A stretch of 64,000 bases of DNA from an uncultured Candidatus Saccharibacteria bacterium (GTDB lineage Bacteria; Patescibacteriota; Andersenbacteria; UBA10190), in NCBI GenBank assembly GCA_964610055.1, contig CAZSUC010000001.1, positions 588,977 to 652,976 on the forward strand, read 5' to 3'. The notes under the pieces are model-generated. The model was not told where the DNA came from, did not search any database, and saw only the letters and a program-made list of their open reading frames with translations. Below are positions 10,375 to 39,895 of the stretch, in pieces. The position numbers and the translations under genes were made by a program. Numbering within the stretch: the stretch's first letter is position 1; the number at the start of each line of letters is the position of its first letter.

Positions 10375-10380
10375 ATAAAG

Positions 10381-13547: not shown

Positions 13548-13548
13548 A

Positions 13549-19655: not shown

Positions 19656-19688
19656 TTAAAAACACATGATATTATTACAGTAGACGTT

Positions 19689-21095: not shown

Positions 21096-21406
21096 TTATC
21101 AGTCACAAAACATCCAGCTGGATTATTATGGTTAGCTTGCTTATCTACTTTTTTGCAGACCACCACATCGTTTTTTACATTTGGCTCACCGGAACAACAA
21201 TCCTTTTATTAACCTCTATCCCTGTCCGTACTTTTCTGCTGTTTACTGTCCTCGCATTTTTTGCTATTGCCGCCTTAAACATCTCCATCCCATGGCCAAA
21301 CGCCTGGCCGGATCTCATTAAATTATCTGCTTCAGCTCTTACTTGGGTAGCTATTACTACTACCACTTCCGCCTGTATCCTTTCATACCACCGAAGTGCG
21401 CCTTAA
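21092..21406 (+). CDS. Small membrane protein
   Basis: 104 aa with about 3 hydrophobic helices and an ATGA overlap with the upstream gene. Confidence 0.45.
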   Translation: MIISHKTSSWIIMVSLLIYFFADHHIVFYIWLTGTTILLLTSIPVRTFLLFTVLAFFAIAALNISIPWPNAWPDLIKLSASALTWVAITTTTSACILSYHRSAP

Positions 21407-22093: not shown

Positions 22094-22102
22094 AAAACTG
22101 AC

Positions 22103-23503
22103 TCAAACGTTCTTCCGCCGCCGCAAACCGATCGCCAACCACGCCCACGGCATCAACCAAACAAAATACTGATGCAATAAAGTAGGGAAAAACCCGATCA
22201 ATATCGTAAAGATTGCCAGCCCGGCTTCATATATATTTATCTTCCGCCACCAAAGCGCTGCGTACACGAGCGCCATCATTCCTCCCACCACCACCATCTT
22301 CCCCACGCTCCCGAAGTCCAACACAACCGGTAATGCCGGCAAATCATAATCCATCCGCGCCTCCCGCGTCACTGAATATGTCAGCCCCTTCACTACCGCC
22401 GCCGGATTATCCCAGACAAACGGCAAAATACTTACAACCGGTATAGCACTAACCAGCACCGCTGCTAACAACGTGATTTTCACTTTTTTCCCCGGCCGTG
22501 TCCGCTGCCAAACACTAATCAAAAATACCGGCACAAACACCACTGCCACCTGCTTCACCGAAAGCGATACTCCTAAAATCAACGCTGCCCATAACGCATG
22601 CTGCTCGACCAACGTCACTGCCCCTATCAAAGACACAACACCTAAGAAATCCGTATGCGCTATTCGTGCCACATACAAAGACCAGCGGTTAAACAGCCAA
22701 AATAAAGCGGCCAGAACGCCCAAAACCGGCTGCTTCCGCCGCCAAAGCCAAGCCCCTAATAATCCGGCTCCCCCAAACCAAACTATCGTCACAATTACCC
22801 GCCAGACTTCAATCCAGTCTTCATATTCAGTTAAGCCTAGCTGCTGCATTCCGGCCGACATCCAATACACCAAAGGAAAATGAGCCGGATAACCAATACA
22901 AGTATTGTCTAAAGCACATTTATACGGATTTTCTCCTGATTTAATTTGCCCACCCCGTTGCCAATAATATCCAATATCATCTCCCGCCGTATCATGACTC
23001 CAAAAAGAATTTAGAACTGCTGCCAACGCTCCCATTCTCGTCTGAAACACTATGGCTATATTAACGTCCTCATTATCTTCAGCCATATCTTGATTTCCAG
23101 GCTTCCATTTCACCTCATTCCCGTAATTTACAAACCTCAACCTCGCGATTGATGTAGTTTTTGCCTTAATTTTTGCAAATTCAAACACCCATTTCACCTC
23201 TGCCTTTTTACCAATATCTCTTTTTCCACTTACCTCTCGAATCACATTTCCTTGTTCGTCCTGAACTTGCATTATTATTTCACCCGGATTAAGCGCTTTT
23301 TGTTCCTGTGTAATAATTTCCGAAAGTCCGCTCATTGGTACCTGAATTACTTGCTCTAGCTGTTCGTTCGTCTCTAGCACCACAGGATCGATTTCGCCTT
23401 CCTGAGGCTCAATCACACGCACCGGAACTGTAACTGGCCATATTGCCAATATAGTTAGCAACAATACCACTATTCCTAATTGTATATATAAAAACTTTTT
23501 CAT
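22103..23503 (-). CDS. Polytopic membrane protein, GT-C-like (DUF2029/GT87-like guess)
   Basis: 466 aa. An N-terminal anchor and a soluble segment are followed by about 8 TM helices. The family call is tentative. Confidence 0.65.
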   Translation of the reverse strand: MKKFLYIQLGIVVLLLTILAIWPVTVPVRVIEPQEGEIDPVVLETNEQLEQVIQVPMSGLSEIITQEQKALNPGEIIMQVQDEQGNVIREVSGKRDIGKKAEVKWVFEFAKIKAKTTSIARLRFVNYGNEVKWKPGNQDMAEDNEDVNIAIVFQTRMGALAAVLNSFWSHDTAGDDIGYYWQRGGQIKSGENPYKCALDNTCIGYPAHFPLVYWMSAGMQQLGLTEYEDWIEVWRVIVTIVWFGGAGLLGAWLWRRKQPVLGVLAALFWLFNRWSLYVARIAHTDFLGVVSLIGAVTLVEQHALWAALILGVSLSVKQVAVVFVPVFLISVWQRTRPGKKVKITLLAAVLVSAIPVVSILPFVWDNPAAVVKGLTYSVTREARMDYDLPALPVVLDFGSVGKMVVVGGMMALVYAALWWRKINIYEAGLAIFTILIGFFPTLLHQYFVWLMPWAWLAIGLRRRKNV

Positions 23504-23568
23504 TATCTCACGTATTTATAGCATACCGCATTGCCAGGCTCCCCCTCCAGCGATTACCCTTATACTTA

Positions 23569-26346
23569 ATGTTACAACGACTCTGGCAAACAGAACGCTC
23601 CGGAATTATATGGATCGGACTTACTTGGTTTTTTTTCTTCGTCCGTATTCTCAGTGGTACTCATGTTTATTTTCTCGATGACCTCAAATTATTTTATTAC
23701 CCCATTGAAACCATCTACGCTGAGTTTCAACATTCTGGCCACCTACCTCTTTGGAGTAACGTTTTTGGTTTCGGACACCCCTTACTTGCCTGGGGACAAC
23801 TTGGCTTCTTCACTCCCTTACATTTTCTGCTTCGCGCACTTTATATCCCCGCCCTGAATCTTCTTCAAATTTCACTGGTCACTTATTTTGCCATTGGTCT
23901 CTCGGGACTATACACCTTTCTCCGCCAGTGTCGCCTCTCACCGCTTGCCTCAGCTTTTGGTAGTATCGTCTTTATCTTTGCCGGATTCAATATTGGTCAC
24001 TTAAATCATGTGAATTTTTACGTTGGCACCATGGTTCTACCATGGCTCTTAGTTGCCATTCTACGTTTCACTAAACAACCCTCTTTGCGTTTATCAAGCA
24101 TTGTTGCTTTACTTGGCGCCACTATCGCTGTCAGTGCTCAGCCCCAAATCGTGGCTTATTGTTTTGTTATCGCTGGCATTACAGCCATCATTTTTTTCGT
24201 TCATCATTTTTTTTCTCTGACACGCTCACATCGTCTCCATTATCTTATTCATTTTCTCGTTTTGGGCATTATTGCCACTATCCTAGCCTTGGGTATTTCT
24301 TCAATTACCCTGCTTCCTCTTTTTGAGTTCTTACCATATACAGAACGTAGCGCCGGACTCAGCACCACTGAGCTTCTCGACTTCAGCTTTCCTCCCTACC
24401 ATTTTATTACTTTCCTTGCTCCTTATTTCTTCGGAGACCATGCCAATTATTGGGGCCCTAAAGGCTTTCAAGAACTTGCTGCCTATACTGGCATGATTCC
24501 GCTTTTACTTGCTGCTAGTTCGCTTTTCTCTTGGCGCACGCATCGCCCTCTTCGTATCCTTGGTCTCGCTTTAATCTGCTTTAGTCTCCCGTTACTCCTC
24601 GGTTCATATTCCCCGTTATATCGTTACCTTGTCTCACATGAGATTATTTCTGCCCTTTCTATTCCTGGACGATTCGTTTTACTTCTTGATTTTGGTCTCG
24701 CTCTTCTGGCTGCCATCGGTTTATCTGATTTCTTAAACCAAAAACTAAAACTATCACGTTATTTTGGGGCCATTCTCATTACCATTGCCATTTTTCTGCC
24801 TTTTGCCTATACCGCCACACTTACCCCTCAAATTCGCCTCCGTCTTTATCAGCTAATCAGTCAACTCAACTGGTCTTTTCTCCTAGCTGGTCTCGGATTT
24901 ATTGCCACTCTCTGGGCTTGGCTCTGGCCATTTCGACTCCAACGTCGTCATTATGCTAGCATCCTTCTAGGTATCACAGCTTTTACTCTTATTGCTTACG
25001 GCTGGAGTTATAATCCCATTACTTCACGCGCTCAAGTTCAATCTACCTCTCCTTTACTAACTAACACTACTCTCATTACTCCCGCTCGAATTTTCAGTCA
25101 GCACCAGCTTCTCATTTCTCAAGCTGCCACTAAATTGCATACTACTGAGGATCTTTCACCTTCTTTCTCAATCAAACAACCAATCTTCACCTGGCCAGAG
25201 TCTGGTTGTTTTTCCATTGCCATGCACGCGAAACCAGAAATTAACTCTCACATTACCGTCACTATATCCAGTGATCTTGATAGTCGTGAAATCCTCGCCT
25301 CTCAATCAATTGCCAGTAGTCTTATCACTTCAAACGACAATCAAATTATCTGTTTTCCTTCTTTTACTCCGACAGCCGATCAAAACCTCATCTTGTCTTT
25401 CACGAGCTTAACTGATTCTGGCGTTAATCTATATTACCAATCCGAACCAGCCACCAGCTCAACATATCTAATCAGAGTTGCGAACCCAACTCTCAGTCAG
25501 CTTCAAGCATCAGCAAAACCAGGTCAAATTATGTATCAAACATACGATTTTGACGACACCGAATCGATCACTTTAAATCGTCATCTTAACGCCGCTGCTG
25601 GTTTAAGTAGTGCAAATTGGATTGGATCGCTCTCAATTCTATCGTATCGAGAATTTGTTGATACTTTCTTCGGTAATGATCAGGAAAACGTCGATGGTGA
25701 CGGTCATCATGTTTTAGCAAAAAATCGTCATATTTTTAACATGGCTAGCGTCAATTATTTTGCTCAAATCTTGAATCCCAACACTCAGGATATTATGCCA
25801 TCAGCTGATTTCTCAGAAGAATCTGTGTATCAATTCGGCGACAAAACCGCTAAGCTTTACTTTAACCCCGAAGCTTTTCCTAAAGCCTATTTAGTACGCA
25901 ATGCCGAATATGTACCCCCTGCCGACGAAGCTCGCACAATTATGCTTGATCCCGAATTCAACCCTTCTCAACTTGTTCTTATTAGCGGAACAAGCGAACC
26001 TAAACATTTACCTGCGTATAGCTCCGACCCAATCAATGGCACAGTTAATACAACCGTTTACGAGCCAACTCGTATTGACATTGACGTCACTACTGATACC
26101 GAAGCTTGGCTTGTAGTCACTGATGCTAGTATCCCTTTATGGCAAACTTATATTGATGGCGAACTTGCCCCATACTATGTTGCTAACACCGTGTTCAAAA
26201 CTGCTCGTGTTCCTGCCGGAAATCACACCGTCAGCTTTCGCTATATATCGCCAGCTACTCAATTAGCTTCCAAACTATGTCTTTCTGCTTTAGCTATTAG
26301 TATATTGATATTAATTATTCCTTTTAAGCGCCTTTCTCATAAATGA
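23569..26346 (+). CDS. YfhO-family polytopic membrane protein (putative glycosyltransferase)
   Basis: 925 aa. N-terminal HLPLWSNVFGFGHPLLAWGQLGFFTP and C-terminal ...WQTYIDGELAPYYVANTVFKTARVPAGNHTVSFRYISP plus a terminal TM are typical of the YfhO architecture. Confidence 0.75.
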   Translation: MLQRLWQTERSGIIWIGLTWFFFFVRILSGTHVYFLDDLKLFYYPIETIYAEFQHSGHLPLWSNVFGFGHPLLAWGQLGFFTPLHFLLRALYIPALNLLQISLVTYFAIGLSGLYTFLRQCRLSPLASAFGSIVFIFAGFNIGHLNHVNFYVGTMVLPWLLVAILRFTKQPSLRLSSIVALLGATIAVSAQPQIVAYCFVIAGITAIIFFVHHFFSLTRSHRLHYLIHFLVLGIIATILALGISSITLLPLFEFLPYTERSAGLSTTELLDFSFPPYHFITFLAPYFFGDHANYWGPKGFQELAAYTGMIPLLLAASSLFSWRTHRPLRILGLALICFSLPLLLGSYSPLYRYLVSHEIISALSIPGRFVLLLDFGLALLAAIGLSDFLNQKLKLSRYFGAILITIAIFLPFAYTATLTPQIRLRLYQLISQLNWSFLLAGLGFIATLWAWLWPFRLQRRHYASILLGITAFTLIAYGWSYNPITSRAQVQSTSPLLTNTTLITPARIFSQHQLLISQAATKLHTTEDLSPSFSIKQPIFTWPESGCFSIAMHAKPEINSHITVTISSDLDSREILASQSIASSLITSNDNQIICFPSFTPTADQNLILSFTSLTDSGVNLYYQSEPATSSTYLIRVANPTLSQLQASAKPGQIMYQTYDFDDTESITLNRHLNAAAGLSSANWIGSLSILSYREFVDTFFGNDQENVDGDGHHVLAKNRHIFNMASVNYFAQILNPNTQDIMPSADFSEESVYQFGDKTAKLYFNPEAFPKAYLVRNAEYVPPADEARTIMLDPEFNPSQLVLISGTSEPKHLPAYSSDPINGTVNTTVYEPTRIDIDVTTDTEAWLVVTDASIPLWQTYIDGELAPYYVANTVFKTARVPAGNHTVSFRYISPATQLASKLCLSALAISILILIIPFKRLSHK

Positions 26347-28313
26347 AAATTTCACTCGTCTTTGTTTCTCTTTGGGGGCTTATTTCACTTTGTCTTTCAC
26401 TTGGCTTATTTTATCTCGCTAATCAAGCTCCTAATACTCTTAAGGCCTTACCTGTAATTGACGCACCTACCTGGCTAACTTATGGTCTCTGGCAAGGACT
26501 TCTGGTCGGATCCGCTTTCTTATGTACCGTTTTGCTGATTAATCGTTTACCCCGCCATCGTTGGTTAGCTGCCAGTATCGCACTCGTCATTTTTACTCCT
26601 CTAGCCATTGGTGGTTTTTGGTTTTCTACCTCCAATCTTGGCATTTCTGACTGGGATTATTATTTTTCTTATCACGAAGTTTTACGTCAAGGTATTCTCG
26701 TTCATCACACTTTTCCTTTTTGGAATCCATATATTTGCGGCGGTACCGCCGGCTTAGGCGATCCCGAATTTCCTGTCTTTACTCCTACATTCTTGTTAGA
26801 GCTCATCTTTGGTATTCCAATCGGATTTCGTCTCGCTATTATGTTTTCAACTGCCATGACCGCTCTTGGCATGCTTATGCTAGGTAAGCGCTTAAAACTT
26901 TCAGTTAATGCTTCTCTACTTGCTGCTTTAGTTGTTGCTTTTGGCAGCGTTAACTTACTAGAAATTGTTGAAGGCCATCCTAACATTTTTTCGGCCATGT
27001 GGGTACCATGGATATTTTGGGCCTGGCTTGCGGAGTATAAATCTTTTCGTCTTAAACACTCCATCCTAACCGGCACCTTCTTAGCTCTCACTTTCTTCCA
27101 GGGCGGAATTTATATGCTGATGTACGTCACAATTACTCTGGGTCTCTTAATTATCTTCCTTCCAAAACATAAACGCTCATTTCTTATTACCGCTACTGCT
27201 GGTTTATGGGCTCTGGGCTTCGCTGCCATTAAACTTATCCCTGTCTTATTTTGGTTAAACCAATTTCAAGACCAAGTATATGCCAGCTCAGCTAACACAT
27301 TATTATCTTTACATAAAATTCTTCTCGGCCGTTTTCTTCATGGAGAAACTAATGCCAATCTCATTTCAAGCCAAGGTAGTGGATGGCATGAATATGGCGC
27401 TTATATTGGCCCGATCGCCTTCGCCCTCGCCTTTGTTCGTCTCTCTCGTCTAAAAACACACCGTCTCACTCAACTTTTAATTGCTTTTGCTTTAATTTTC
27501 CTTCTCTTCTCAGCTTTAGGACCAACTCTAAAGCCCTTCTTCAATCAAGTCTCTTATTTCCCTCGCTCTAATATCTCCCGCATTATCCTATTTGCAGTTT
27601 TACCTTTAGCCTTATTAGCCGGACAAGGTCTAGATCAATTTTCCAAACGCTTTAAATATCTTGGCGCCGCTATCGTCGGGTTAGCCGCTATTGATCTCTT
27701 TTCTCTGGCTTACCCGTTATCATTACAAGCTTTTACTCTCGTGCCTGCTGTACCCACTCCAGAAACCGCTGCTTATCCCTTAGAACGCACTGTCGGCACT
27801 TTCATGGTTCGTTCTAACGGAGTTGACTACACTCGTGCTTACACTGCTATCAAATCTGGCTATGGCACCGAAACCTATTGCTCAGTTCTTACTCCAACTA
27901 ATTCTACTACCGCTATAGAAGAAGGCGAATCAGATCAAGACCGCGCCTACGTCACCTTATCAAATTCAAATGACGGTACAACCCAGCTACTTGATTGGAA
28001 CTATAACCGAGTAGCAGTCAGTGTTAATTCCTCACAACCGACTCAAGTGATCCTTAACAGTAATTATGCCTCTGGTTGGCTCACTAACGGTAAACCAGCC
28101 AAAGAAATTAACAATCGCCTAGGCGCATCTATTCCCAAAGGACACAGTGAAATCATTTTTACTTACCGTTCACCTGGGTTTATAGCCGGCTTAGTTGTTA
28201 CTTTACTTTCGTTAATAGCAGCCCTTACAAGCTATATCTTCTCCACCACAAAATATTTCAACTCTGGACACGCTTCTATCCCTGATAAAGACTCCGTTTT
28301 ACCATCACGATAA
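26343..28313 (+). CDS. YfhO-like polytopic membrane protein
   Basis: 656 aa. It shares the FPFWNPYICGGTAGLGDPEFPVFTP motif with the two other + strand YfhO-like genes. ATGA overlap with the upstream gene. Confidence 0.7.
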   Translation: MKISLVFVSLWGLISLCLSLGLFYLANQAPNTLKALPVIDAPTWLTYGLWQGLLVGSAFLCTVLLINRLPRHRWLAASIALVIFTPLAIGGFWFSTSNLGISDWDYYFSYHEVLRQGILVHHTFPFWNPYICGGTAGLGDPEFPVFTPTFLLELIFGIPIGFRLAIMFSTAMTALGMLMLGKRLKLSVNASLLAALVVAFGSVNLLEIVEGHPNIFSAMWVPWIFWAWLAEYKSFRLKHSILTGTFLALTFFQGGIYMLMYVTITLGLLIIFLPKHKRSFLITATAGLWALGFAAIKLIPVLFWLNQFQDQVYASSANTLLSLHKILLGRFLHGETNANLISSQGSGWHEYGAYIGPIAFALAFVRLSRLKTHRLTQLLIAFALIFLLFSALGPTLKPFFNQVSYFPRSNISRIILFAVLPLALLAGQGLDQFSKRFKYLGAAIVGLAAIDLFSLAYPLSLQAFTLVPAVPTPETAAYPLERTVGTFMVRSNGVDYTRAYTAIKSGYGTETYCSVLTPTNSTTAIEEGESDQDRAYVTLSNSNDGTTQLLDWNYNRVAVSVNSSQPTQVILNSNYASGWLTNGKPAKEINNRLGASIPKGHSEIIFTYRSPGFIAGLVVTLLSLIAALTSYIFSTTKYFNSGHASIPDKDSVLPSR

Positions 28314-29662
28314 TAAATTCTATATTCTGCTTCGCTTAAATCTTCTTCGCCTACTATCTTAATCGCGCTATTTCCATGGCTTAAATACAAAAGCCGATCA
28401 TAAATATGCACATTTTCCGTACCGATCGCACCCAGCCCCGACACACATTGAATTAAAGGTTGTACATCAACTAAATCAGCCGCACTATTTGTCCTATTTC
28501 CTAATGAAAAATCATTTAAACTCCCTCCTGTTTTCAGGAATGGCCATATCACTAAACCTAAAAACACCACCGCTCCCGCACCACTGACAGTTATTGTTCC
28601 TAATTGAATCCAACGCACACTATATCTCTTTAAAAACTTTCCGTACCCAATGCCGGACAATACCCATATTCCCAAACTTACTAAAACAAAATAACGCAAT
28701 GTAAACCGATCAATCATATACAGTAAAGCGCTTAAATGTATCACTAACCCAATCAGCCACGCCCCAGCCTGCACTCGTTTTCGCGGCAATACAATAGCTA
28801 AAATTACTCCCACACATAATAATCCTAAAATAGTTATTTGCACTCCGCCCGGAAATTCCTGCCCCGTATAACGCGCTATAAACGATGACCCGCTCACAGC
28901 CACGCGCAAAATACCGGGTAAATCATGCCAACGCTGACCCATTAAATCGGCCACAGCCGTCGGATCACCTTGGTCATCCGTAAACAACTGCAACATAATC
29001 ATCTGTGTCCCAAAGGCAGCCCAAAAACCCACCGCTGCCGGCCACCATTCCCACCATGTCCGTAAAATTCGCCGAATCATATGTTTATTACCTTTTCTCT
29101 GTACTGCCTCAACCGTTTCTTTGATTAACCACACTAGTGCAATCGCTAATACCGTCGGCGCAAATAAAATATGCGTATGCATCCCTAAACCAGCCACCAC
29201 CCCCGCTAACAAATGCTTATAACGCCATTTCTTTTCTAACACCCACAATAACAAAAATGACCAGAAGGGAATTAAAGTAATCCCCCAACCAATTCGTTGA
29301 TAAGTTAAATAAATAGGCGAAAATCCCATCATCACTGCTCCTATTAAACCAACTGATCGCCCGAATGTTTTTTCCAACACAGCAATCGCCAATAAATAGG
29401 TTATTATCGACACTATCAGCATCGGCACCCGTAACGCCAAGGCTGTATATCCAAACACTTTAATAAAAGGCACACGCACGTAATCCATTAAAGGCCCAAT
29501 ATATGACCTTTCTCCTTTGAAGACCAACTCTTCTGCTTGAGTCAGCTCCCATGCATTTTCTCCCTCCGACCCCTCATCTCCCATTAACCCCGGCACACTT
29601 CCCAGCCAGGCCATATTAATCACTATAAACAGTCCTAATAAACCTAATTTCACTTTATCCAT
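28232..29662 (-). CDS. GT-C glycosyltransferase, family 39/83-like (ArnT/PMT-type)
   Basis: 476 aa. GDEGSEGENAWEL...IGPLMDYVRVPFIKVFGYTALALRVPM... matches the ArnT/PMT first-loop DE motif and helix pattern. Confidence 0.75.
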   Translation of the reverse strand: MDKVKLGLLGLFIVINMAWLGSVPGLMGDEGSEGENAWELTQAEELVFKGERSYIGPLMDYVRVPFIKVFGYTALALRVPMLIVSIITYLLAIAVLEKTFGRSVGLIGAVMMGFSPIYLTYQRIGWGITLIPFWSFLLLWVLEKKWRYKHLLAGVVAGLGMHTHILFAPTVLAIALVWLIKETVEAVQRKGNKHMIRRILRTWWEWWPAAVGFWAAFGTQMIMLQLFTDDQGDPTAVADLMGQRWHDLPGILRVAVSGSSFIARYTGQEFPGGVQITILGLLCVGVILAIVLPRKRVQAGAWLIGLVIHLSALLYMIDRFTLRYFVLVSLGIWVLSGIGYGKFLKRYSVRWIQLGTITVSGAGAVVFLGLVIWPFLKTGGSLNDFSLGNRTNSAADLVDVQPLIQCVSGLGAIGTENVHIYDRLLYLSHGNSAIKIVGEEDLSEAEYRIYYRDGKTESLSGIEACPELKYFVVEKI

Positions 29663-29664
29663 AG

Positions 29665-31620
29665 CTAAAGTTGGTATGCAATATCACCTGACTTAGCGAC
29701 CGGCTCTGTCTCTCCTTTGCGTTGCAAAAACATATTACCGGGACGTAGATCTTCATCAATGTACCGGACAGTTACTGCGTTTCCGGCTGTCCCGTCAGGA
29801 CTGGTAATAGCCACGTAAAATTCATGTCCCGCCGCTTCTGTAATCGGATCAAACTCAAAGCGCTTCCATTCGTTGTCTATAATTTCACTGGCATTCACTG
29901 TCACTCGTCGCAACGCGGTTGCCGAATCTGGCCGCTCCTTAATTTCCAACACGACTTCCGCTGTATTATTTCGACTCGAAAAAGTCGCAAACCCAATTTC
30001 GACCGCATTCCAATTATCCTGCTCGGGCTGCACAGTTTGCCCCACTTCCATTCCGCTCGTTAACTCGCCTACATGCTTCGTGAAATATCCAACTGTCATT
30101 GTCTCGTAAATCCAGGCATAAGGCACACCATGTATTGAAACAGTATGTACTGGCGTCTTGTCTTTCACTTCATCTAAAACGTTACTCGCTTGATCATCCA
30201 GAGCTCTTCCCCCCATATTACGATAAGTAATAATGTAACCTACTCGATAATCGTCTCTCGCACTTAAGCTAAATACTTTTCCCTGAAAATACGGCCGCAT
30301 CACGTTCGGATACCAAGAAGCAACTGTTAATTTGTCTCCCAACGGATTTTCATTCAACCAATCAGCCGCTAAATCTAACCCTTCCCCCCACCCCTGCTGA
30401 CTCAAAGAACGCACATTAGGAAATATCGGATTATTATACGCAATCGCATACGGCGCCCACCGCCACCATGTCACTCCCGCTAATATAACTACCAACCCAA
30501 TCAGAATTAATTTATCTCGCTTCTTACTGTGCCACCACGTCATCCCTTGCGCTAACATCCAACCTGATAGAATAGGCCCTATAACCAATGCCGGCATTGC
30601 GTAACGATCCCCTTTCTTAGCCGCCAACGAAATCAATACTAGAAAACCAACAGCATACACAATCATCCAAACCATTGTCTGCGCTCCTTTATCTCGTCGT
30701 TTAACCGCCGCATATAACACATAAACCACAGCCGCTATACTCAAAATTTGTACCCACGGAGTTACTCTCCCTAAAACTGTTCGCACATAAAACGAGGCTG
30801 GCGAAATAGGCTCATCTGATATTTCTAACGCCACATGCTCATCCTCTAAAACCGTCTGCGTATCTTTAGCAATATATCCTAATTGAAAATCCTTCCGAGT
30901 TAACATTGTCGGCCATAAAATTACCAAGACCACCACCGCTATTACGCCCCACATTGCCATTTCACCTAAAACTCGCTTCCAATTCTTCCCTCGCTCCCAA
31001 TACAAATCAATCATCCACATTAAACCAGCAACTGGCCCCAACCAAAATGCTAATACCATTTTTACTCCTAACGCCGCCCCCGCAAAAACTGCGCTAGTAA
31101 TCAAATAACCAGTCTTACGCCGTCGTCGAAACTGAATAAACCACAACAAAGACGTTAACATCAGCATCGCTTGTAACATATCCAAATGCGCCACCATACT
31201 CATCCCTACTACATACGGCTCCAACGCCAACATTATTCCTGCCAACCACGCCATCTCTTTTCCCCAGATCTGACTTAATAGATACGCCACTAATCCAATC
31301 AGACCTGACACAACTATCGCAACTGGCACAGTCGCTGCTTTTCTAAAGCCAATCACATTATTGTCATCTAATTCCACTCCGCTTATTTTTTCTTTTACCA
31401 CAATTCCCGCTCCCATGATCCACATTCCCGTTGCACCCGGATGACTCGTTAAGAATGTCCCGCTAATATCACCAGCGGCTAACTTAGCGTAAAACTCATT
31501 ACTTCGCATCATCCAGTTTTCTTCATCGGCCGTCATAAACGATCCAATCCCAACCAATCGCACACTTATCGCTAGCATCCCGATTACAATCCCAATTATA
31601 ATGTCTTTTACTTTTATCAT
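29665..31620 (-). CDS. GT-C glycosyltransferase (ArnT/PMT-type) with C-terminal soluble module
   Basis: 651 aa. The N-terminal ~500 aa are paralogous to 40168-41676 (FMTADEENWMMRS vs YMTVDEEAWMLRS; ASWYPNVMRPYFQGKVFSL vs ASWYPQVLQTYFRGEVVSL). The C-terminal ~135 aa are homologous to the N-terminal module of 41673-44324. Confidence 0.75.
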   Translation of the reverse strand: MIKVKDIIIGIVIGMLAISVRLVGIGSFMTADEENWMMRSNEFYAKLAAGDISGTFLTSHPGATGMWIMGAGIVVKEKISGVELDDNNVIGFRKAATVPVAIVVSGLIGLVAYLLSQIWGKEMAWLAGIMLALEPYVVGMSMVAHLDMLQAMLMLTSLLWFIQFRRRRKTGYLITSAVFAGAALGVKMVLAFWLGPVAGLMWMIDLYWERGKNWKRVLGEMAMWGVIAVVVLVILWPTMLTRKDFQLGYIAKDTQTVLEDEHVALEISDEPISPASFYVRTVLGRVTPWVQILSIAAVVYVLYAAVKRRDKGAQTMVWMIVYAVGFLVLISLAAKKGDRYAMPALVIGPILSGWMLAQGMTWWHSKKRDKLILIGLVVILAGVTWWRWAPYAIAYNNPIFPNVRSLSQQGWGEGLDLAADWLNENPLGDKLTVASWYPNVMRPYFQGKVFSLSARDDYRVGYIITYRNMGGRALDDQASNVLDEVKDKTPVHTVSIHGVPYAWIYETMTVGYFTKHVGELTSGMEVGQTVQPEQDNWNAVEIGFATFSSRNNTAEVVLEIKERPDSATALRRVTVNASEIIDNEWKRFEFDPITEAAGHEFYVAITSPDGTAGNAVTVRYIDEDLRPGNMFLQRKGETEPVAKSGDIAYQL

Positions 31621-31659
31621 GCATTACTTATAGTACAATAATTCTAATTAATAAACCGA

Positions 31660-33930
31660 ATGTCGCCTTTTTCTCGTCCTTACTTTGCCTTATTAATTGT
31701 TAGCGCTTTAGCGCTCTGGCCGCTTTTTTTCGGCCGTTTTTACGGTATTGGCGATACACGCTCCGTTTATATTCCCATCGAGCATTTTTTTGCTGAGCAA
31801 CAACGGCACTTTAATTTACCGGCCTGGATGCCAGACACTGCTTGGGGTTTTCCGGTAATTGCTTCTGCTCAAATCGGTTTCTTTTATCCGCCTCTTTTAC
31901 TGACACGCTTCTTACCTATCTTTATTTACCTGCCGTTATTACTCTGGCTCCACATCTTTTTTCTCGGTATCGGCGCCTATCGTTTGGCCCGAACCCTAAA
32001 TATTAGTCAAAACGGCGCCCTGATTACCGCCCTATCCATTGCTCTTAACGCCTTTCTTTGGCAGCACTTAACCCACCTAAACATTATTTTTGCTTTGGCT
32101 TGGTTTCCTTGGCAATTACTCGCCGCTCATTACTTAGCCAGATCACATCGACCTAATTTCAAACAATTTGCCGGCTTAGTTTTCACTTTAGGCCTCCCGT
32201 TTTTAGCTGGCCAACTTCAAGTTCCTTTTCTCACCGCTCTTTTCTCTACCATTTATTATTTCGTTTCTTTACCCAAAAAGCCTTTCCCCTCTCGACATCT
32301 CCTCATTTTCCTCGGCGCAACTCTTTTGACTATTACTCTCACCGCCGTCCAAACATTTCCCACCCTAGAGCTCACATTCCTTTCCAGCCGTGGATCAACT
32401 AATGAATTTTCTTTGGAACGAGCTAATCAACATAGTTTTCCTATTTATCATCTACCCACCTTACTTTTTCCACGCTTTTTCGGCTCAGATAATACTTATT
32501 GGGGGAAACGTATTGAAATAGAATACGGCTTTTTCTTCGGCGTCATTCCGCTATGCCTCAGCTTTATTGCTATATTCAACAAATCACGTCGTTACCGTTT
32601 CTGGATTATCAGCGGCTTCATAGCTTTTCTGTTAAGCCTGGGCGAATTTTCTCCTTTTCGCTTAGTTGGCTTAGAGCCATCGCTCTGGTACTTTTCTGCT
32701 CCCGCCCGTTGGCTATTCTTCACCGTTTTTTCTGGATCAATCCTTGCTGGTTTTGGTTATGATCTTTTGCCTAATATCTCACCTCGTTACCTGCGCATCC
32801 TTAAATCAACTATTGTAACCATATTAAGCTGCGTCATTTTATATAATCTCGTCCTTTGGCTCTTGCCGGAAAATTTTGCTTCTTATGTTCTAACCTGGTT
32901 GCAATCACAAAATCTCACCGGCGCTCGCGATTCAGCCTATTATTTAGATAAGATTAATTCCTTACTCTCCTCTGCAAAACACACGGGCTTATCACTTGCT
33001 TCGCCATATACTTACATCACTCTCATTCCTTTGCTCGCCATTCCATGGCTCTTCCAAAAACATCACTCGTGGCTTATTCCTCTCACAGCTATTGAACTCA
33101 TCTTAATTGCCAGTACGGCCAATCCAAGTGTTACTTGGTCCAATATTCTAACTCCTCCTGCCAGCATCTCTGCCCTTCCTCAAAGTGTTACCAGCGATCA
33201 CGCTCGCATCATTTCAATCTCAGCTCCCGGCGATACAGGGCTTTGGCTAACTAACCCTGAAACCCGTGCCGATACCGCTCGTCGCGAACAATATCGTCAA
33301 CAACTCGAACCACTCACTCACTCACTTTTTAATCTTGCCGGTTCTCAATGGCCCGCCTCGCTGGATCTACAATCTCAGGCACATACTTTAGAAAATTTAC
33401 TCGAATCACGCCAAGATCAACTATACATTGATTCTGACAAAGCCGCTGCTCTCAATATCGGTGCTGCCTTAATTGCCAACGAAGCTCCCCACACTGTTTC
33501 AGAAGTACTACCCCAAAATATTGCACCGAATATCTTCTTGTATTCCTTCTCTCCTCAACCTCGCGCTTCTCTTTTAACTGAAGACCAAACCGAATTAGCG
33601 CTTCCATACGACAACACTAATCCTAATCACCAAACTTATACCCTCTCATCATCTACTCCCGCGACCCTTATTATTCGCGACACCTGGTACCCTGGTTGGC
33701 AAGCCACACTTGACGACCAACCCGTTAACATTGATACCTATAACAATATTTTCCGTTCTGTTTCGGTTCCCTCCGGATCACATACCGTTTCTTTCACCTA
33801 TCATCCTACTTGGCTTTATTACGGTCTAGCTATTTCGCTTACCACTCTTGGTTTTCTAATATTTGTGCTGATGTACAATAATCATATCTACACTGTTCCC
33901 TTTATTTTAAGGAGGAAGACCATTGGCTGA
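31660..33930 (+). CDS. YfhO-family polytopic membrane protein
   Basis: 756 aa. Contains NLPAWMPDTAWGFPVIASAQIGFFYP, and the C-terminal RDTWYPGWQATLDDQPVNIDTYNNIFRSVSVPSGSHTVSFTYHP plus a terminal TM. Confidence 0.75.
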   Translation: MSPFSRPYFALLIVSALALWPLFFGRFYGIGDTRSVYIPIEHFFAEQQRHFNLPAWMPDTAWGFPVIASAQIGFFYPPLLLTRFLPIFIYLPLLLWLHIFFLGIGAYRLARTLNISQNGALITALSIALNAFLWQHLTHLNIIFALAWFPWQLLAAHYLARSHRPNFKQFAGLVFTLGLPFLAGQLQVPFLTALFSTIYYFVSLPKKPFPSRHLLIFLGATLLTITLTAVQTFPTLELTFLSSRGSTNEFSLERANQHSFPIYHLPTLLFPRFFGSDNTYWGKRIEIEYGFFFGVIPLCLSFIAIFNKSRRYRFWIISGFIAFLLSLGEFSPFRLVGLEPSLWYFSAPARWLFFTVFSGSILAGFGYDLLPNISPRYLRILKSTIVTILSCVILYNLVLWLLPENFASYVLTWLQSQNLTGARDSAYYLDKINSLLSSAKHTGLSLASPYTYITLIPLLAIPWLFQKHHSWLIPLTAIELILIASTANPSVTWSNILTPPASISALPQSVTSDHARIISISAPGDTGLWLTNPETRADTARREQYRQQLEPLTHSLFNLAGSQWPASLDLQSQAHTLENLLESRQDQLYIDSDKAAALNIGAALIANEAPHTVSEVLPQNIAPNIFLYSFSPQPRASLLTEDQTELALPYDNTNPNHQTYTLSSSTPATLIIRDTWYPGWQATLDDQPVNIDTYNNIFRSVSVPSGSHTVSFTYHPTWLYYGLAISLTTLGFLIFVLMYNNHIYTVPFILRRKTIG

Positions 33931-34814: not shown

Positions 34815-34841
34815 CCACCAAGCCAGTCTTGGTGGATTTTT
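34815..34841 (+). terminator. Rho-independent terminator of the small-gene unit
   Basis: CCACCAAG-ccagt-CTTGGTGG forms a perfect 8-bp stem followed by ATTTTT. The U-tract overlaps the stop codon of the convergent ATPase gene. Confidence 0.65.
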
Positions 34842-36135
34842 ATATCCACATCCTATCAATCAATTCTCGCGGTTGTCCGTACCGTAATCGATTTACCGCC
34901 TGCACCTCTACCTTCCCTATAGCCGTTTCTAAACTTAACGGCGGCAAACTCTGCCCCCGAAATGCTCGGTACGTAATTCCGGCCTGAGTCAGACGGATAA
35001 AAAAGTGATATGGCGGCAAGTCCTGAAAATCCTCCACTTGAATCGCCTGCCCCTTATCCCACGATGTTTGCTGAAAGGCCGGCAGTAACGCTTCCGCATC
35101 ATTTGCCCCTATTTGAAAAGCCACCAACGTTCCTACATTACCCAACACCGCCTCTCGCACCTCGTCAGTTAATTGCGCCACATACTGATTAGTTAAATGC
35201 ACAGCTAATCCGTACTTGCGCGCTTCCGACAACATAGAAATGAATGTTTCCGTCATCACATTCTGAAATTCATCGACGTATAAATAAAAGGGAACCCTGT
35301 CTTCGACCGGCATATCGGCACGACGCATTATCGCCGCCTGTAACTTTGCCATCAAAATCAATCCCAACATATATGAATTTAATTCTCCCAGTCTTCCTTT
35401 AGACAAATTCACAATCAAAATTTTGCCATGATTCACAATCTCATCAAACGCCAAAGCATTGCGCTTCTGACCGATGATATTGCGCATCGTCGTATTTGTC
35501 ATAAAGCGACCAAACTTGGAAGTAAAATAATTCAACATTTCCGAGCGATGAAACTGCGCGGTTTTTGCCATCTGCTCTTCCCAAAATGACAATACGACCC
35601 GATCTCGCACATGGCGACGTTTTTCTTGCTCAAATTTTTCATCCGTAAATAAGCGCGGAATCTCAATCAAAGTTCCGCCCGCCGGATCGGCCATAACTGT
35701 TAAAGCCGCATTTCGCATCCAGTGTTCAAACTGCGGCCCAATAATTCCCTGCTGATCCGGATCAAATAGTTTATAAAATATCTGAATCGCCTCGGCCACC
35801 AAAAAATCTTTCTCACTTTCAGTTTTACCATCCAATAAGTTCAAGCCTAATGGCCATTCCGTATCAGCCGGATCAAACAACACTACATCATCCAACCGCT
35901 CCGCCGGAATATTATTTAACAGCCAATCGCACACTTCTCCATGCGGATCAACAAAACAACACCCCGCCCCAGCCTGAATATCCTGCAAAATCATATTTTG
36001 ATACAAAGTCGATTTACCCGTCCCAGTTTTTCCAATGCAATACATATGTCGCATCCGATCTTGCGGTGCTGTTTGAATACTGCGCATTTGATTGCGAAAT
36101 TCAGCGTGTCCAATTACATTCATTCTTTCTGTCAT
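34840..36135 (-). CDS. Soluble FtsK/HerA-superfamily P-loop ATPase, TraD/VirD4 (type IV coupling protein)-like
   Basis: Walker A CIGKTGTGKST, then FVDPHGE, Walker B FYLYVDEFQ, and the C-terminal LSEARKYGLAVHLTNQYVAQL...LGNVGTLVAFQIGANDAE (TraG/TraD C-terminal-type pattern). No TM segment is visible. Confidence 0.8.
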   Translation of the reverse strand: MTERMNVIGHAEFRNQMRSIQTAPQDRMRHMYCIGKTGTGKSTLYQNMILQDIQAGAGCCFVDPHGEVCDWLLNNIPAERLDDVVLFDPADTEWPLGLNLLDGKTESEKDFLVAEAIQIFYKLFDPDQQGIIGPQFEHWMRNAALTVMADPAGGTLIEIPRLFTDEKFEQEKRRHVRDRVVLSFWEEQMAKTAQFHRSEMLNYFTSKFGRFMTNTTMRNIIGQKRNALAFDEIVNHGKILIVNLSKGRLGELNSYMLGLILMAKLQAAIMRRADMPVEDRVPFYLYVDEFQNVMTETFISMLSEARKYGLAVHLTNQYVAQLTDEVREAVLGNVGTLVAFQIGANDAEALLPAFQQTSWDKGQAIQVEDFQDLPPYHFFIRLTQAGITYRAFRGQSLPPLSLETAIGKVEVQAVNRLRYGQPRELIDRMWI

Positions 36136-36136
36136 T

Positions 36137-36361
36137 TCAGCTCCTTTCTACCATTGTAAAATAATTAGCCGGAATAGGACGTGGCGGCAATCCCGGTCGC
36201 ATCACCATAACTACTTTTGTTTCCACCTTAGCTTCAGACGTAATCTTCACTGTCCGCCGCCATGCTTCCAAACGGTTTTTAATTACTCTCTGCGTTTCTA
36301 TTGGCAGCCAATGCTTAATTCGCTCATACTCCTCTTCTACTTTGTGTAATTTTGCTATCAT
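36137..36361 (-). CDS. Small hypothetical protein (74 aa)
   Basis: ATG 36361 overlaps the upstream TGA (ATGA), and its own stop lies 1 nt before the next ATG. This translationally coupled position is the main evidence. Confidence 0.55.
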   Translation of the reverse strand: MIAKLHKVEEEYERIKHWLPIETQRVIKNRLEAWRRTVKITSEAKVETKVVMVMRPGLPPRPIPANYFTMVERS

Positions 36362-38043
36362 ATTGTTTCTTTCATCATCCATTGCCCGATCGCTGATTCC
36401 GCCGTTTGTTCTAGCCATCTTTTCAACGGCCTAACCCCGAACCGCGGATCATATTTCTGCTCAATGTGTTGTCTAATCATATTATCCGACATCGACAAAT
36501 TAACTCCCAAATGACTGAATCGTCTTTCAATCTTCTGTAGTTCCAACCGTCCGATCATCACTAAAGTTTCCGGCGCAAACGGAGCAAAAACAGCAATTCC
36601 CTCAAACCGATTCAAAAACTCCCACCGAAAATATTTAGTCAGCAATGGCAACATCCGCCGACTTAACCATTCCGCACTTGTTACATCCTCTCCTGCCTGC
36701 CAATCAGTCACAATTTCACTTATCCCTATATTCGAAGTCGCCACAATCACGGTTTTCCGGAAATCGATTGTTCGTCCTTGCCCATCAGTTAAACGCCCAT
36801 CTTCTAACACTTGTAAAAAAATATCAAACACCGCTTTATCGGCTTTTTCAATTTCATCCAATAAAACTAACGAATATGGCCTTTGTTGTACTGGATTAGT
36901 TAATTGACCACCACTCTCATACCCAACATAACCAGGTGGCGCACCAATTAAACGCTGTACATTATGTGCTTCCTGGTATTCCGACATATCAACCCTTACC
37001 ATCGCCTTATCTCCGCCGTACAATTCTCGCGCCAACACACGCGCCACCTCTGTTTTACCGACTCCGGATGGACCTAAAAACAAAAATGAACCCAATGGTC
37101 GATCCGGATTCTTCAATCCTAACCATGACCTTTCGATTACTTTTGTTACCATATTTACTGCTTGATCCTGACCAATGACCTGCGCTGCTAATCTACCCCC
37201 CAACCCAGCAATGGCCTTCCTATCTCGCGTTTGAACTTTTATTGTCGACATCCCCAACTTATCACTCAAAACCCGCTGCGCATCTTCATATGCCACAATC
37301 CTCCGCCCCTGCACCACCGCCTCCGCTCCAATGTCATCTAAAAACCTAATTGCCCGTTCGGGCATCGCTAAGCTCGCTGGTAACTGACTCGCTAAATCAT
37401 AGATTGCTTCCGGCATATTAGCAGCCATCTTAATATTATGTTTGAATCCAAAATAAGCGGCGCGATCTCTTAAAATTTCCACCACATCTGCTTTTCCTAA
37501 TTCATCTAATCGAATCCATTCGAACTCACGTACATACTTCGGATAATTTTCCTTAAATTTTATTTCTCCTTCTAACGACAACGCTAACACTAATCTATGC
37601 CTCTGTTTCTGCCAAAACTTACTCCACACATCCGCCATCTGCGCTGTATTCATCACATACTCCAACAGCACCTCTGCCTTATCAATCACCAAAATACAGG
37701 CTGGTAGCGCTCCTAGTGCTTCTCCGTAAAGCCGTAATTTCGCGGCCGGATCATGCGCTCGATTCATTTTTTCCTGCCACCATTTCAAATCTAACTCCAG
37801 AATTGGTGTTTGAATTATCCCCTGCAAACTGCCTTTGACCGCCGCCTGCGCCAACCCTCTCAACAACGCTGTTTTGCCTACTCCTTCTCCTCCTGTCACC
37901 ACCACGTTATTCATTTGATCACGCTCAAATACTCGCGCCATCAAACTCAACTCTCGCTCCCGACCTCTCACTGGCCACTGACGAACTTGAGTAGCCTCTC
38001 GCACTAAATCAATTATATGTATTGTTTCTAATCGCTCAGGCAT
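36358..38043 (-). CDS. Clp/Hsp100-family double-AAA+ ATPase, short form (no N-domain, no M-domain, degenerate NBD1)
   Basis: NBD2 is intact: GPSGVGKT, LLDEIEKA, GAPPGYVGYESGGQLT, VIVATSN, FLNRFEGIAVFAPF and GVRPLKRWL. NBD1 keeps Walker A GGEGVGKT, but Walker B reads ILVIDKAE (E replaced by K) and the KYRGEFE-type pore loop is absent. 561 aa. Confidence 0.85.
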   Translation of the reverse strand: MPERLETIHIIDLVREATQVRQWPVRGRERELSLMARVFERDQMNNVVVTGGEGVGKTALLRGLAQAAVKGSLQGIIQTPILELDLKWWQEKMNRAHDPAAKLRLYGEALGALPACILVIDKAEVLLEYVMNTAQMADVWSKFWQKQRHRLVLALSLEGEIKFKENYPKYVREFEWIRLDELGKADVVEILRDRAAYFGFKHNIKMAANMPEAIYDLASQLPASLAMPERAIRFLDDIGAEAVVQGRRIVAYEDAQRVLSDKLGMSTIKVQTRDRKAIAGLGGRLAAQVIGQDQAVNMVTKVIERSWLGLKNPDRPLGSFLFLGPSGVGKTEVARVLARELYGGDKAMVRVDMSEYQEAHNVQRLIGAPPGYVGYESGGQLTNPVQQRPYSLVLLDEIEKADKAVFDIFLQVLEDGRLTDGQGRTIDFRKTVIVATSNIGISEIVTDWQAGEDVTSAEWLSRRMLPLLTKYFRWEFLNRFEGIAVFAPFAPETLVMIGRLELQKIERRFSHLGVNLSMSDNMIRQHIEQKYDPRFGVRPLKRWLEQTAESAIGQWMMKETI

Positions 38044-38044
38044 A

Positions 38045-39895
38045 TTAGACCATCATTGTCCGATTAACAGTTGTGCCACCCGTAATCTGACTGGATCTTA
38101 TCGTTCCTTCCTCTTCATCTTCTGTTCCTATAATTATCCCGCCACGATGACGCGCTTCTGCCGCTAACTCAATCTCTGTCCCTCTTTGCTTAATCTGACC
38201 AACATAATTATCTAAATCTACTCGCCAACCCGGCTTCTCTCTTTCATTTCTCCAATTTTCTCTTTCCGCCTCTGCTCTCCATTCATATCCAACCGGACCA
38301 TCTGTCACTTGCTCTAAACTATCCGGCTTCGTTTTCGCCTCATAAAAACGATACCTAACTGCATCCCCATCTCGCTCCACTACCGTTACATCCAACACTT
38401 CGCCTTTTACCGTACGCTCTCCCGAAAAATACTGCTGTTCTCTGTTTACTGCGCCTCTAATCACTTTTTCTAGCTCTCCTCGCTCTTCCACCGGCCACAA
38501 ATCCATCACACTCTTTTCTATTTGCTCCGGCATCAACGTTAAAGCGACTTTCTCTTCCATATCTAACTCAACATCAATACCCTGAATTTCCTCTCTTCTT
38601 ACCTCCGCCTTATAAACCGTTTCTACCTTCGGGTACTCTTTCTTTTCCCCAACCTTCACATCTACATTCACATCTACATCTATATTCTCTACATTATTTT
38701 CTCTTCCCTTTTCTAAAATCACTGGTCTTTCAGCTATTTTTTTCTCCTCCGTAATCGCAACTTCAACTCTTTCCTTAACTCTCGTAACGCTTTGCTCCGA
38801 TAAAACCTGGTCGGCTTTCACATCCACCGCTTTCGGCACTAGTCCCGGAAACATCTCCTGTAAACTCACTTCTACTTTCCTAGATTCATTTTTCTGTCCT
38901 AAATCAGTTTGCACTACTTCTGGCATTGAAGCAGCTTCTCTTTCCCCCGCATTTACATACTTTATCTCTATGGCTTCACTCGGCGTATTTTCTATCACCC
39001 GTACCTCTCCTGTCTTCGTCTCACCAGGTTCCTCTTGCTTTAACAACTCCTTACGCAACTCCTCATGATTCCAAACTTCTTCTAGCTGCGGCTCTTCAAC
39101 CTGCCTCTGCTCCACAAACACATCAGAATTAATCGTATTTTCAGATGCTTGTTCTTCTAGTTCTTCTCTTTGATCATCTACTTCCACTCTTTCACCAACC
39201 ATATCCATCGCATTTATATAATTTATCTCAATGCCTTCACTCGACGTATTTTCTATCACTTGCACCTCTTCTTCTCTCACCTCATTGCTTTGCTGTTCTT
39301 GTACCACTACCACTTCTTCTCTAACAAGCTCTTCACTTATCTCATCAACCATACTTTCTGCTTGCGCTTCAATCTCTACTTGTTCTACTTGCGCTTCATC
39401 TTCACTGCCTATCCACTCGTCGCTTTCTTCATTCAAATTAACCGGTACTTCACGAAATTGCACTAACATATATTCTGTTTCTCGTTCTCCCCACTCATTC
39501 ACTTCGTCTTTGACCACCACTGCACAACTTTTAAACTCATGATAAGCCACATATCCACTTTTCGCGCCACATAATGTTTCAAATTGCCCTTCTTCATCCA
39601 TTCCTTCACTACTAATCTCCTGATCATTCCAAAATACCCGTCTCTTACCAGTCGCGTCTTCCCTCACCACGCATTTATATGTCTGCGCCATTTCTAGTCT
39701 TTGCCCTGTCCCTTGCTCTAAATCAACTCGAGCTGATTCTAATCTCATTGTCATTCGCTCATGTTCTTCTGTCTGGCGTTCCTTTTCCGATGCTAATTCT
39801 TCTGCTTGAACCTGTACCTCAGATTCAATCTCTTCAACATCCAACATTTCCTCTAGGCTTTCTTCGGTTTCCGCTATGTTTATACTTTCAGGCAT
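38045..39895 (-). CDS. Hyper-acidic repeat-containing protein (616 aa), function unknown
   Basis: ATG 39895 lies 8 nt after AGGAG. The long central region is Glu/Val/Gln-rich with an internal duplication (EVQVIENTSSEGIEINYINA and EVRVIENTPSEAIEIKYVNA). There is no signal peptide or TM segment. Its stop lies 1 nt before the Clp-like gene's start. Confidence 0.75.
   Translation of the reverse strand: MPESINIAETEESLEEMLDVEEIESEVQVQAEELASEKERQTEEHERMTMRLESARVDLEQGTGQRLEMAQTYKCVVREDATGKRRVFWNDQEISSEGMDEEGQFETLCGAKSGYVAYHEFKSCAVVVKDEVNEWGERETEYMLVQFREVPVNLNEESDEWIGSEDEAQVEQVEIEAQAESMVDEISEELVREEVVVVQEQQSNEVREEEVQVIENTSSEGIEINYINAMDMVGERVEVDDQREELEEQASENTINSDVFVEQRQVEEPQLEEVWNHEELRKELLKQEEPGETKTGEVRVIENTPSEAIEIKYVNAGEREAASMPEVVQTDLGQKNESRKVEVSLQEMFPGLVPKAVDVKADQVLSEQSVTRVKERVEVAITEEKKIAERPVILEKGRENNVENIDVDVNVDVKVGEKKEYPKVETVYKAEVRREEIQGIDVELDMEEKVALTLMPEQIEKSVMDLWPVEERGELEKVIRGAVNREQQYFSGERTVKGEVLDVTVVERDGDAVRYRFYEAKTKPDSLEQVTDGPVGYEWRAEAERENWRNEREKPGWRVDLDNYVGQIKQRGTEIELAAEARHRGGIIIGTEDEEEGTIRSSQITGGTTVNRTMMV

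Follow-up and report, generated by a model that had tools for sequence, protein, structure and literature searches.

A predicted beta-sandwich module carried at either end of GT-C membrane glycosyltransferases in a Candidatus Saccharibacteria glycan locus

Why do two membrane enzymes of one gene cluster carry the same soluble segment, one at its C terminus and the other near its N terminus? The question is raised by a 64,000-nucleotide stretch of DNA, the window, from an uncultured Candidatus Saccharibacteria bacterium (GenBank assembly GCA_964610055.1, contig CAZSUC010000001.1, positions 588,977 to 652,976). Open reading frames (ORFs) on its minus strand encode proteins of 651 amino acids (aa) at 29665-31620 and of 883 aa at 41673-44324. 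A first reading of the DNA, the original prediction, had taken both for glycosyltransferases of the GT-C type and had proposed that they share a mobile, beta-rich module which binds an acceptor or a glycan. Most of the polymers on bacterial surfaces are made or decorated by GT-C enzymes. To our knowledge, their selection of acceptors is understood for only a few model enzymes, and the envelope glycans of the candidate phyla radiation (CPR) are essentially uncharted. We report here that the shared segment is an autonomous beta-sandwich domain of approximately 125-140 residues, and that it probably works outside the cytoplasm as an accessory domain, binding a glycan or an acceptor, for enzymes of the membrane by which surface glycans are modified, most of them GT-C enzymes.

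The shared module, its carriers and its predicted fold

BLASTP aligned the tail of the 651-aa protein (residues 513-649) with an N-terminal region of the 883-aa protein (residues 38-183) over 146 residues, with 41% identity, 56% positives and an E-value of 2e-26. The Smith-Waterman score of the pair was 245, against 30.0 ± 5.2 (maximum 53) for 2,000 shuffles of the 883-aa segment (z = 41). Similarity by chance or by composition is therefore ruled out. When all six frames of the window were searched with phmmer (277 stop-to-stop ORFs, each 60 aa or longer), the two segments were the sole significant mutual matches (1.7e-25 and 8e-26). Module copy 1 occupies residues ~513-651 of the 651-aa protein as a C-terminal beta-sandwich (29668-30084, minus strand), and copy 2, delimited by BLASTP and the family profile described below, occupies residues ~38-185 of the 883-aa protein (43770-44213, minus strand); the family profile itself covers residues 44-162 of the latter at E = 1.1e-46. 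The residue-by-residue alignment of the original prediction is thus confirmed by BLASTP and phmmer and far exceeds that of shuffled sequences; the peptides quoted were correct and the coordinates essentially right.

Both carriers are GT-C enzymes, as had been supposed. The 651-aa protein matched Pfam PMT with 32.9 bits (gathering cut-off 22.7) and PMT_2 with 25.6 bits, and the 883-aa protein matched PMT_2 with 31.3 bits (cut-off 26.1). The core of the 651-aa protein also gave a weak match to the NCBIfam model Agl23. No PDB sequence matched either full-length carrier at E ≤ 1 in a phmmer search of all PDB sequences. A hydropathy scan found at least 8 hydrophobic segments in the 651-aa protein and 13 in the 883-aa protein. 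The Pfam-defined core of the 651-aa protein (30085-31620, minus strand) begins with a transmembrane (TM) helix, TM1, followed by a first external loop in which the acidic motif ADEEN lies, by more TM segments and by a soluble domain. About 262 soluble residues follow the last hydrophobic segment; they comprise a conventional C-terminal soluble domain of ~120 aa (residues ~390-510) and the module, which makes up the final ~140.

The 883-aa protein is arranged differently. A positively charged N terminus (R2 and K6) precedes a signal anchor, TM1 (residues 7-25; 44250-44306, minus strand), which is followed by the module, by a second hydrophobic segment, TM2 (residues 221-239; 43608-43664, minus strand), and, after a loop of nine residues, by the first TM segment of the PMT_2-type core (41673-43607, minus strand). 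The core carries NDEGNYLYD in its first external loop and ends in a C-terminal soluble domain (residues 746-883). By the positive-inside rule TM1 would be oriented with its N terminus in the cytoplasm, and TM2 would return the chain to the cytoplasm, closing a TM-module-TM hairpin. The original description of this segment as signal-anchored was therefore right with respect to TM1 and missed the second helix of the unit. A hairpin of two TM helices ahead of a GT-C enzyme keeps its N-in topology. We suppose that the ADEEN and NDEGNYLYD motifs have a catalytic role. In GT-C structures such as those of ArnT, PglB and Pmt the N terminus is inside, and the first loop and the C-terminal domain are outside. 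Because of this established topology, together with the positive-inside rule, both module copies would lie outside the cytoplasmic membrane, a location that fits the positive N terminus before TM1 and the acidic first-loop motifs of both carriers.

To examine the fold, residues 510-651 of the 651-aa protein were modelled with AlphaFold2 from an alignment of 42 family sequences (A4). The model contained nine strands and no helix, with a mean predicted local distance difference test (pLDDT) score of 96.9 and a predicted template modelling score of 0.90. The best structural match was a 1,082-residue phage 812 baseplate protein (score 13.5; 130 of 142 residues aligned, 18% identity), represented by 9euf chain 0. 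It was followed by the PBCV-1 capsid protein P1v1 (12.0), the tail-spike gp29 of Mycobacteriophage Bxb1 (10.6), acetylxylan-esterase carbohydrate-binding modules (CBMs; 8.4-8.5), BT0996-C (8.2), CBM35 (7.5) and CBM6/36/32/15/8 (6.4-6.8). Foldseek independently returned P1v1, the Douge central fibre, the jelly roll of CE2 esterases, and CBM4/6/61. The model superposes on solved CBMs as a two-sheet, all-beta sandwich, and we conclude that the module is, as modelled, a CBM-type beta-sandwich of the jelly-roll kind. The beta-rich character that had been read from the sequence, and the carbohydrate-binding type of sandwich that had been suggested for structural examination, are both recovered in the AlphaFold2 model and the Foldseek search. 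Polar and aromatic positions conserved in the module lie in the motifs GE, GQTF, RxNT, DN, DxYxxG and GD(L/I)AF.

The likeness to known domains is one of fold. CAZy-type jelly-roll CBMs (CBM4/6/35/36/61, as well as the jelly roll at the N terminus of CE2 and acetylxylan esterases) are 7-19% identical to the module, with no match at the sequence level, and sit on soluble hydrolases and esterases, whereas the module sits on membrane glycosyltransferases. Membership of a named CAZy family such as CBM6, CBM35 or CBM61 was not found, as the module has no significant similarity to PDB chain sequences. The beta-sandwich domains of phage baseplates and tail tips and of PBCV-1 P1v1 (9euf_0, 9d93_Pa, 8zdp_v and 8h2i_bG) resemble the module in fold and belong to virion proteins that lack a membrane anchor. 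The CBM16/61-type beta-sandwich domains of the phage 812 baseplate have been proposed as probable binders of wall glycans (PMC13433997).

A family attached to many membrane enzymes

Neither window copy matched a Pfam model at E < 0.1, and no NCBIfam model spans the module. The best match of the module profile among all PDB chain sequences had an E-value of 0.82 and concerned unrelated proteins. The only curated model touched by the family is PF13313 (DUF4082), like the module an uncharacterised domain of ~140 residues; no function is known for it, and in the literature searched it is mentioned merely in passing. Collinear matches to this model were found in two of 42 family modules, one aligning module residues 4-99 to profile positions 7-97 of 143 (24.1 bits) and the other residues 41-105 to positions 36-97 (16.1 bits). 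Both are below the PF13313 gathering score of 28.4 bits, which no tested module reached; the other 40 modules, like the window copies, gave no match. At most, then, the module would be a distant sister family of DUF4082. The possibility, raised with the original prediction, of a match to some well-known domain whose role is unrelated was not borne out.

Using a word-indexed search we found seven close relatives of the module, all of them N-terminal fragments of proteins built like the 883-aa enzyme; one came from a contig of low coverage with frameshifts, which is syntenic with the window. A profile of 151 positions (A2) was constructed from these seven and the two window copies and searched against 1.84 billion cluster representatives (clusters at 50% identity). 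Of the 2,311 proteins that it matched at E ≤ 1e-3, 779 also passed E ≤ 1e-10 and 37 passed E ≤ 1e-30. The module therefore appears to represent a large domain family that lies outside the curated models. One member is annotated as coming from a metagenome-assembled genome (MAG) of the Nitrospiraceae, so the family is not restricted to one phylum.

Architectures were counted in the best 153 of the 2,311 matches. In 31 of them (N-class, ~750-900 aa) one TM segment and the module precede a polytopic core of four or more TM segments, as in the 883-aa protein; in 32 (C-class, ~450-720 aa) the module follows the polytopic core at the C terminus, as in the 651-aa protein. About 10 were YfhO-like proteins of ~950-1,020 aa with the module placed internally, ahead of the last TM segment, and several contained two or three modules in tandem. 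The remaining large group, 47 short proteins of ~195-300 aa, included 31, of ~200-280 aa, with a TM segment on either side of the module. The proposal of a mobile module at either end of GT-C cores is thus upheld, and extends to internal, tandem and separately encoded copies. Among 84 full-length members, the Pfam partner domains were PMT_2 (20), PMT (5), YfhO (5), DUF2142 (3), DUF6541 (3), Acyl_transf_3 (2), DUF7657 (2), DUF1616 (2) and a WsaF-type glycosyltransferase (GT) (1).

The N-class architecture corresponds to a stand-alone TM-module-TM unit fused ahead of a GT-C enzyme. We examined five stand-alone TM-module-TM genes in their contigs. P0042 overlaps by 11 nucleotides a gene for a 565-aa PMT_2 protein (57.7 bits); P0105 is separated by 3 nucleotides from an upstream gene for a 442-aa PMT_2 protein (31.1 bits); P0051 overlaps an upstream gene for a 447-aa GT87-like protein (22.7 bits, below the cut-off); and P0084 lies 9 nucleotides from a gene for a polytopic protein, cut at 476 aa by the contig end, which has no Pfam match. 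The contig of P0069 holds this gene alone. All four stand-alone genes with flanking sequence therefore adjoin or overlap a gene for a polytopic membrane protein, and three of the four partners have a GT-C Pfam signal. The GT-C families tied to the module by fusion or adjacency are PMT_2, PMT, YfhO, GT87-like, DUF2142 and DUF6541. The hairpin fusions and the adjacency of the stand-alone genes together argue that the module functions with the enzyme.

The gene order around the two enzymes was compared with that of the closest relatives, which are CPR MAGs labelled Candidatus Andersenbacteria or Saccharibacteria. These have the order epimerase, RmlA, GT2, GT1, epimerase, N-class enzyme, C-class enzyme, YfhO-like gene. 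The N-class enzyme was found in six close CPR loci, and a seventh (L001) has a frameshift-truncated copy; full-length orthologues of the 883-aa enzyme in CPR MAGs are 45-51% identical to it. In 7 of 7 loci the C-class gene lies at most 1.4 kb from the N-class gene. The two are adjacent at 5881-10667 of L003 and in L004-L006, and in L003 they overlap by 4 nucleotides, which suggests co-translation. To judge from this order, the N- and C-class enzymes are encoded by a conserved gene pair within one sugar-nucleotide/GT operon. In L001 (an ENA ERZ26167708 contig of 2x coverage) the epimerase gene is split into three and that of the N-class enzyme breaks off at 187 aa. The broken genes of this contig are probably sequencing frameshifts, so that several 'short' homologues in the databases are fragments.

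In the window, the gene directly following that of the 883-aa enzyme encodes a 502-aa PMT_2 GT-C protein (40168-41676, minus strand) which BLASTP identified as a paralogue of the 651-aa enzyme without the module (residues 4-500 against 2-505, 44% identity, E = 1.5e-136). It ends in VPYVWIYAK and its stop codon falls exactly where the module of the 651-aa protein starts, the latter reading VPYAWIYE and continuing with TMTVGYFTKHVGELT. Translation in three frames revealed no remnant of the module downstream of the 502-aa gene. Relatives have a single, module-bearing gene at this place, and on this comparison the C-class gene was evidently duplicated, with one copy now lacking the module. The module-less paralogue defines the domain boundary and marks the module as an accessory unit.

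A possible role in acceptor recognition

How might such a domain assist a GT-C enzyme? The fold, the topology, and the fusion and adjacency of genes all point to ligand binding. Placed beside the active site of the GT-C enzyme, on the side of the membrane that faces outwards, the module would bind the growing glycan or a glycosylated acceptor. By keeping the polymer near the catalytic loop it could confer acceptor selectivity or processivity, as has been supposed for the CBMs of mycobacterial EmbC and AftD. At least three attachments would be topologically neutral: an N-terminal TM-module-TM hairpin (883-aa protein), a position after the external C-terminal domain (651-aa protein), and a separate TM-module-TM protein. 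The module could act in cis or in trans accordingly arranged. One and the same polymer is probably the target of the N-class and the C-class enzyme, either of which would bring its own recogniser.

The appending of a CBM to a GT-C enzyme is already established for the mycobacterial arabinofuranosyltransferases Emb and AftD, and the present finding extends this theme. The C-terminal domain of EmbC contains a CBM that resembles a lectin (PMC3044687), and AftD has three CBMs, which its authors ascribed to a complex glycan acceptor (bioRxiv 10.1101/2019.12.22.885152). These enzymes are analogues of the module carriers rather than members of the family: their catalytic family differs from the PMT/PMT_2 carriers, and neither the module profile nor either full-length protein has a sequence match in the PDB. 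The module is also found in a hairpin fused to the N terminus and as a separate gene; we know of neither arrangement for Emb or AftD. The newest element is this proposed trans-acting TM-module-TM subunit, with its hairpin fusion.

Several points weigh against a glycan- or acceptor-binding role. The analysis revealed no ligand, binding site or metal site for the module, and its profile has no sequence similarity to any solved CBM among PDB chain sequences. The beta-sandwich fold also serves protein-protein contacts, and virion proteins without an established ligand fill the first three places among the structural matches. To judge from the 502-aa paralogue, which does without it, the basic fold of the enzyme does not require the module. 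The TM counts rest on a crude hydropathy scan, and the GT-C-linked fraction was assessed on the best ~150 of the 2,311 matches.

These points bear on other explanations of the data. If the similarity of the two copies recorded a recent duplication or gene conversion between neighbours within this genome, it would have no wider meaning; the two genes are 10 kb apart in one cluster, and a paralogue of one of them is present. This explanation is contradicted by the identities and we reject it as having next to no probability: the copies are 41% identical to each other, whereas comparison over 117 aligned core columns gives identities of 62-69% between the 883-aa copy and N-class modules of other genomes and of 53-61% between the 651-aa copy and C-class modules. 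Furthermore, full-length orthologues of each enzyme occur in four or more other MAGs, and the family numbers more than 2,300 cluster representatives. By these measures the window copies come from old, separate branches of the family, and a local duplication does not account for them. Architecture classes were interleaved in a neighbour-joining ordering, which implies that the module has been relocated repeatedly.

A protein-protein or assembly domain, or a structural lid, that binds no glycan and docks GT-C enzymes to each other (N-class with C-class) or to a scaffold is unlikely in our view. It draws on the closest folds, which are structural virion proteins (phage 812 baseplate, P1v1, Bxb1 and Douge tail-tip), on the conserved adjacency of the N-class and C-class genes, and on the stand-alone copies, whose translational coupling to a membrane-protein partner implies a complex. 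The partners Acyl_transf_3 and WsaF-type GT fit glycan recognition better than the recognition of one enzyme family. Less probable still is a module that recognises a protein (a pilin, an S-layer protein or a secreted protein, for instance) as the acceptor for O-glycosylation by PMT-like enzymes. The cores do match PMT and PMT_2, which are families of protein O-mannosyltransferases, and the window encodes a NeuB-type nonulosonic-acid pathway of a kind often used in protein glycosylation. However, PMT_2 also takes in enzymes with lipid or glycan acceptors, for example ArnT, and the module is fused in addition to YfhO-like, DUF2142, DUF6541 and acyltransferase proteins. Moreover, its fold matches are CBMs and not peptide-binding domains, and no candidate acceptor gene was identified.

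Extending the glycan- or acceptor-binding role to the family at large is more tentative. It is possible that the family is a widespread, hitherto unrecognised acceptor-recognition subunit of extracytoplasmic membrane enzymes that modify glycans, and sets the surface polymer to be extended or decorated, acting either in cis, from a place within the enzyme or at one of its ends, or in trans, in the latter case as an obligate complex of a TM-module-TM protein with a minimal GT-C enzyme. In that case an exchange of modules would redirect GT-C enzymes to other targets, and short TM-module-TM genes would mark GT-C genes that are otherwise unrecognisable, including the pair encoding 466-aa and 236-aa proteins at 21383-23503. 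The module family offers a handle for predicting partner enzymes, for defining a new domain family and for choosing soluble fragments for ligand screening, for example from CPR bacteria.

Candidate look-alikes and the surrounding island

The original prediction had named three weaker look-alikes, at 21383-22093, at 22103-23503 and in the middle of 23569-26346. None was significant against the family profile; the first and last received weak, indirect support and the second none. Profiles of the full family, of its second iteration, of the short class and of the short-class domain only detected no further significant copies among the window ORFs, and comparison of the A4 alignment with 11 neighbouring window proteins by hhalign gave no significant match.

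The ORF at 21383-22093 (minus strand), 9 nucleotides downstream of a GT-C gene, encodes a 236-aa protein in which a beta-rich region lies between two TM segments, with the size and layout of the stand-alone class. In a database of 153 sequences its soluble part matched P0142, a protein with tandem modules, at E = 0.0034; the match was in register with both modules and included the motifs QT(F/L), DxYP(D/E)G and GD(V/L). Against the family profiles it gave E-values of 0.19-0.6, and in hhalign P = 0.077. A single-sequence AlphaFold2 model was helix, all-beta, helix (pLDDT 60), and the word-indexed search returned only the protein itself. We regard it as a likely, highly divergent stand-alone member of the family.

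For the 925-aa YfhO-like protein encoded at 23569-26346, a possible degenerate internal module was located at residues ~557-620 (25237-25428, plus strand), where a weak profile match (E = 0.1) and the hhalign match (P = 0.064) coincide. This protein is homologous (E = 1e-28 to 1e-31) to proteins of 953-991 aa with a true module at ~620-790, the flanks of which align to its residues 38-415 and 753-919. The word-indexed search gave no match for residues 470-750. On these positional grounds a degenerate internal module is plausible, with the chances about even. The third candidate, the ORF at 22103-23503 (minus strand), encodes a 466-aa ALG3-like GT-C protein (Pfam ALG3, 26.4 bits) with a soluble N-terminal region of ~200 aa. 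It gave no module signal with the family profiles or hhalign (P = 0.49, in a different register), and no homology to the partners of stand-alone modules was detectable.

The window as a whole is a large glycan-biosynthesis island. A nonulosonic-acid pathway of pseudaminic or legionaminic type is contiguous at 9436-16444 (minus strand), with genes for a PseB-like dehydratase, a DegT aminotransferase, a CMP-sugar cytidylyltransferase, GNAT, ATP-grasp and HAD phosphatase proteins, and NeuB; an ABC exporter follows at 17766-19655. Nine genes for polytopic membrane proteins, an unusually dense array, occupy ~25 kb at 19626-33930 and 40168-44324. They include ALG3-like, PMT_2, PMT and YfhO-like genes; seven of the nine, between 19.6 and 44.3 kb, have GT-C Pfam matches, and two have no family match. 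The contig that holds this array is reported to be only 698,565 bp long. Genes for GT1, GT2, RmlA and an epimerase lie at 44.3-50 kb. Past the 502-aa gene come three unrelated genes at 34.8-39.9 kb, the YfhO-like gene and then the 651-aa enzyme.

The three unrelated genes (34840-39925, minus strand) encode a 626-aa protein without a family match, a 561-aa ClpB-like AAA+ ATPase (matching the PADLOC models for candidate defence systems PDC-M37B, 1e-40, and DolB) and a 431-aa TraG/VirD4/HerA-like ATPase (mad8, 4e-16). This block breaks the otherwise conserved order of glycosylation genes. As it is absent from the relatives, an insertion is possible, whether of a defence cassette or of a mobile one.

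Rfam detected nothing in the window. As listed, the convergent ORFs at 26343-28313 (plus strand) and 28232-29662 (minus strand) have an 82-nucleotide overlap of their 3′ ends at 28232-28313. GC skew is very strongly negative across positions 1-64000 (-0.14 to -0.49 per 2 kb, typically about -0.3). Since it remains negative through the stretches with plus-strand genes (23.5-28.3 kb and 31.7-33.9 kb), it looks like a strand bias rather than an effect of gene orientation.

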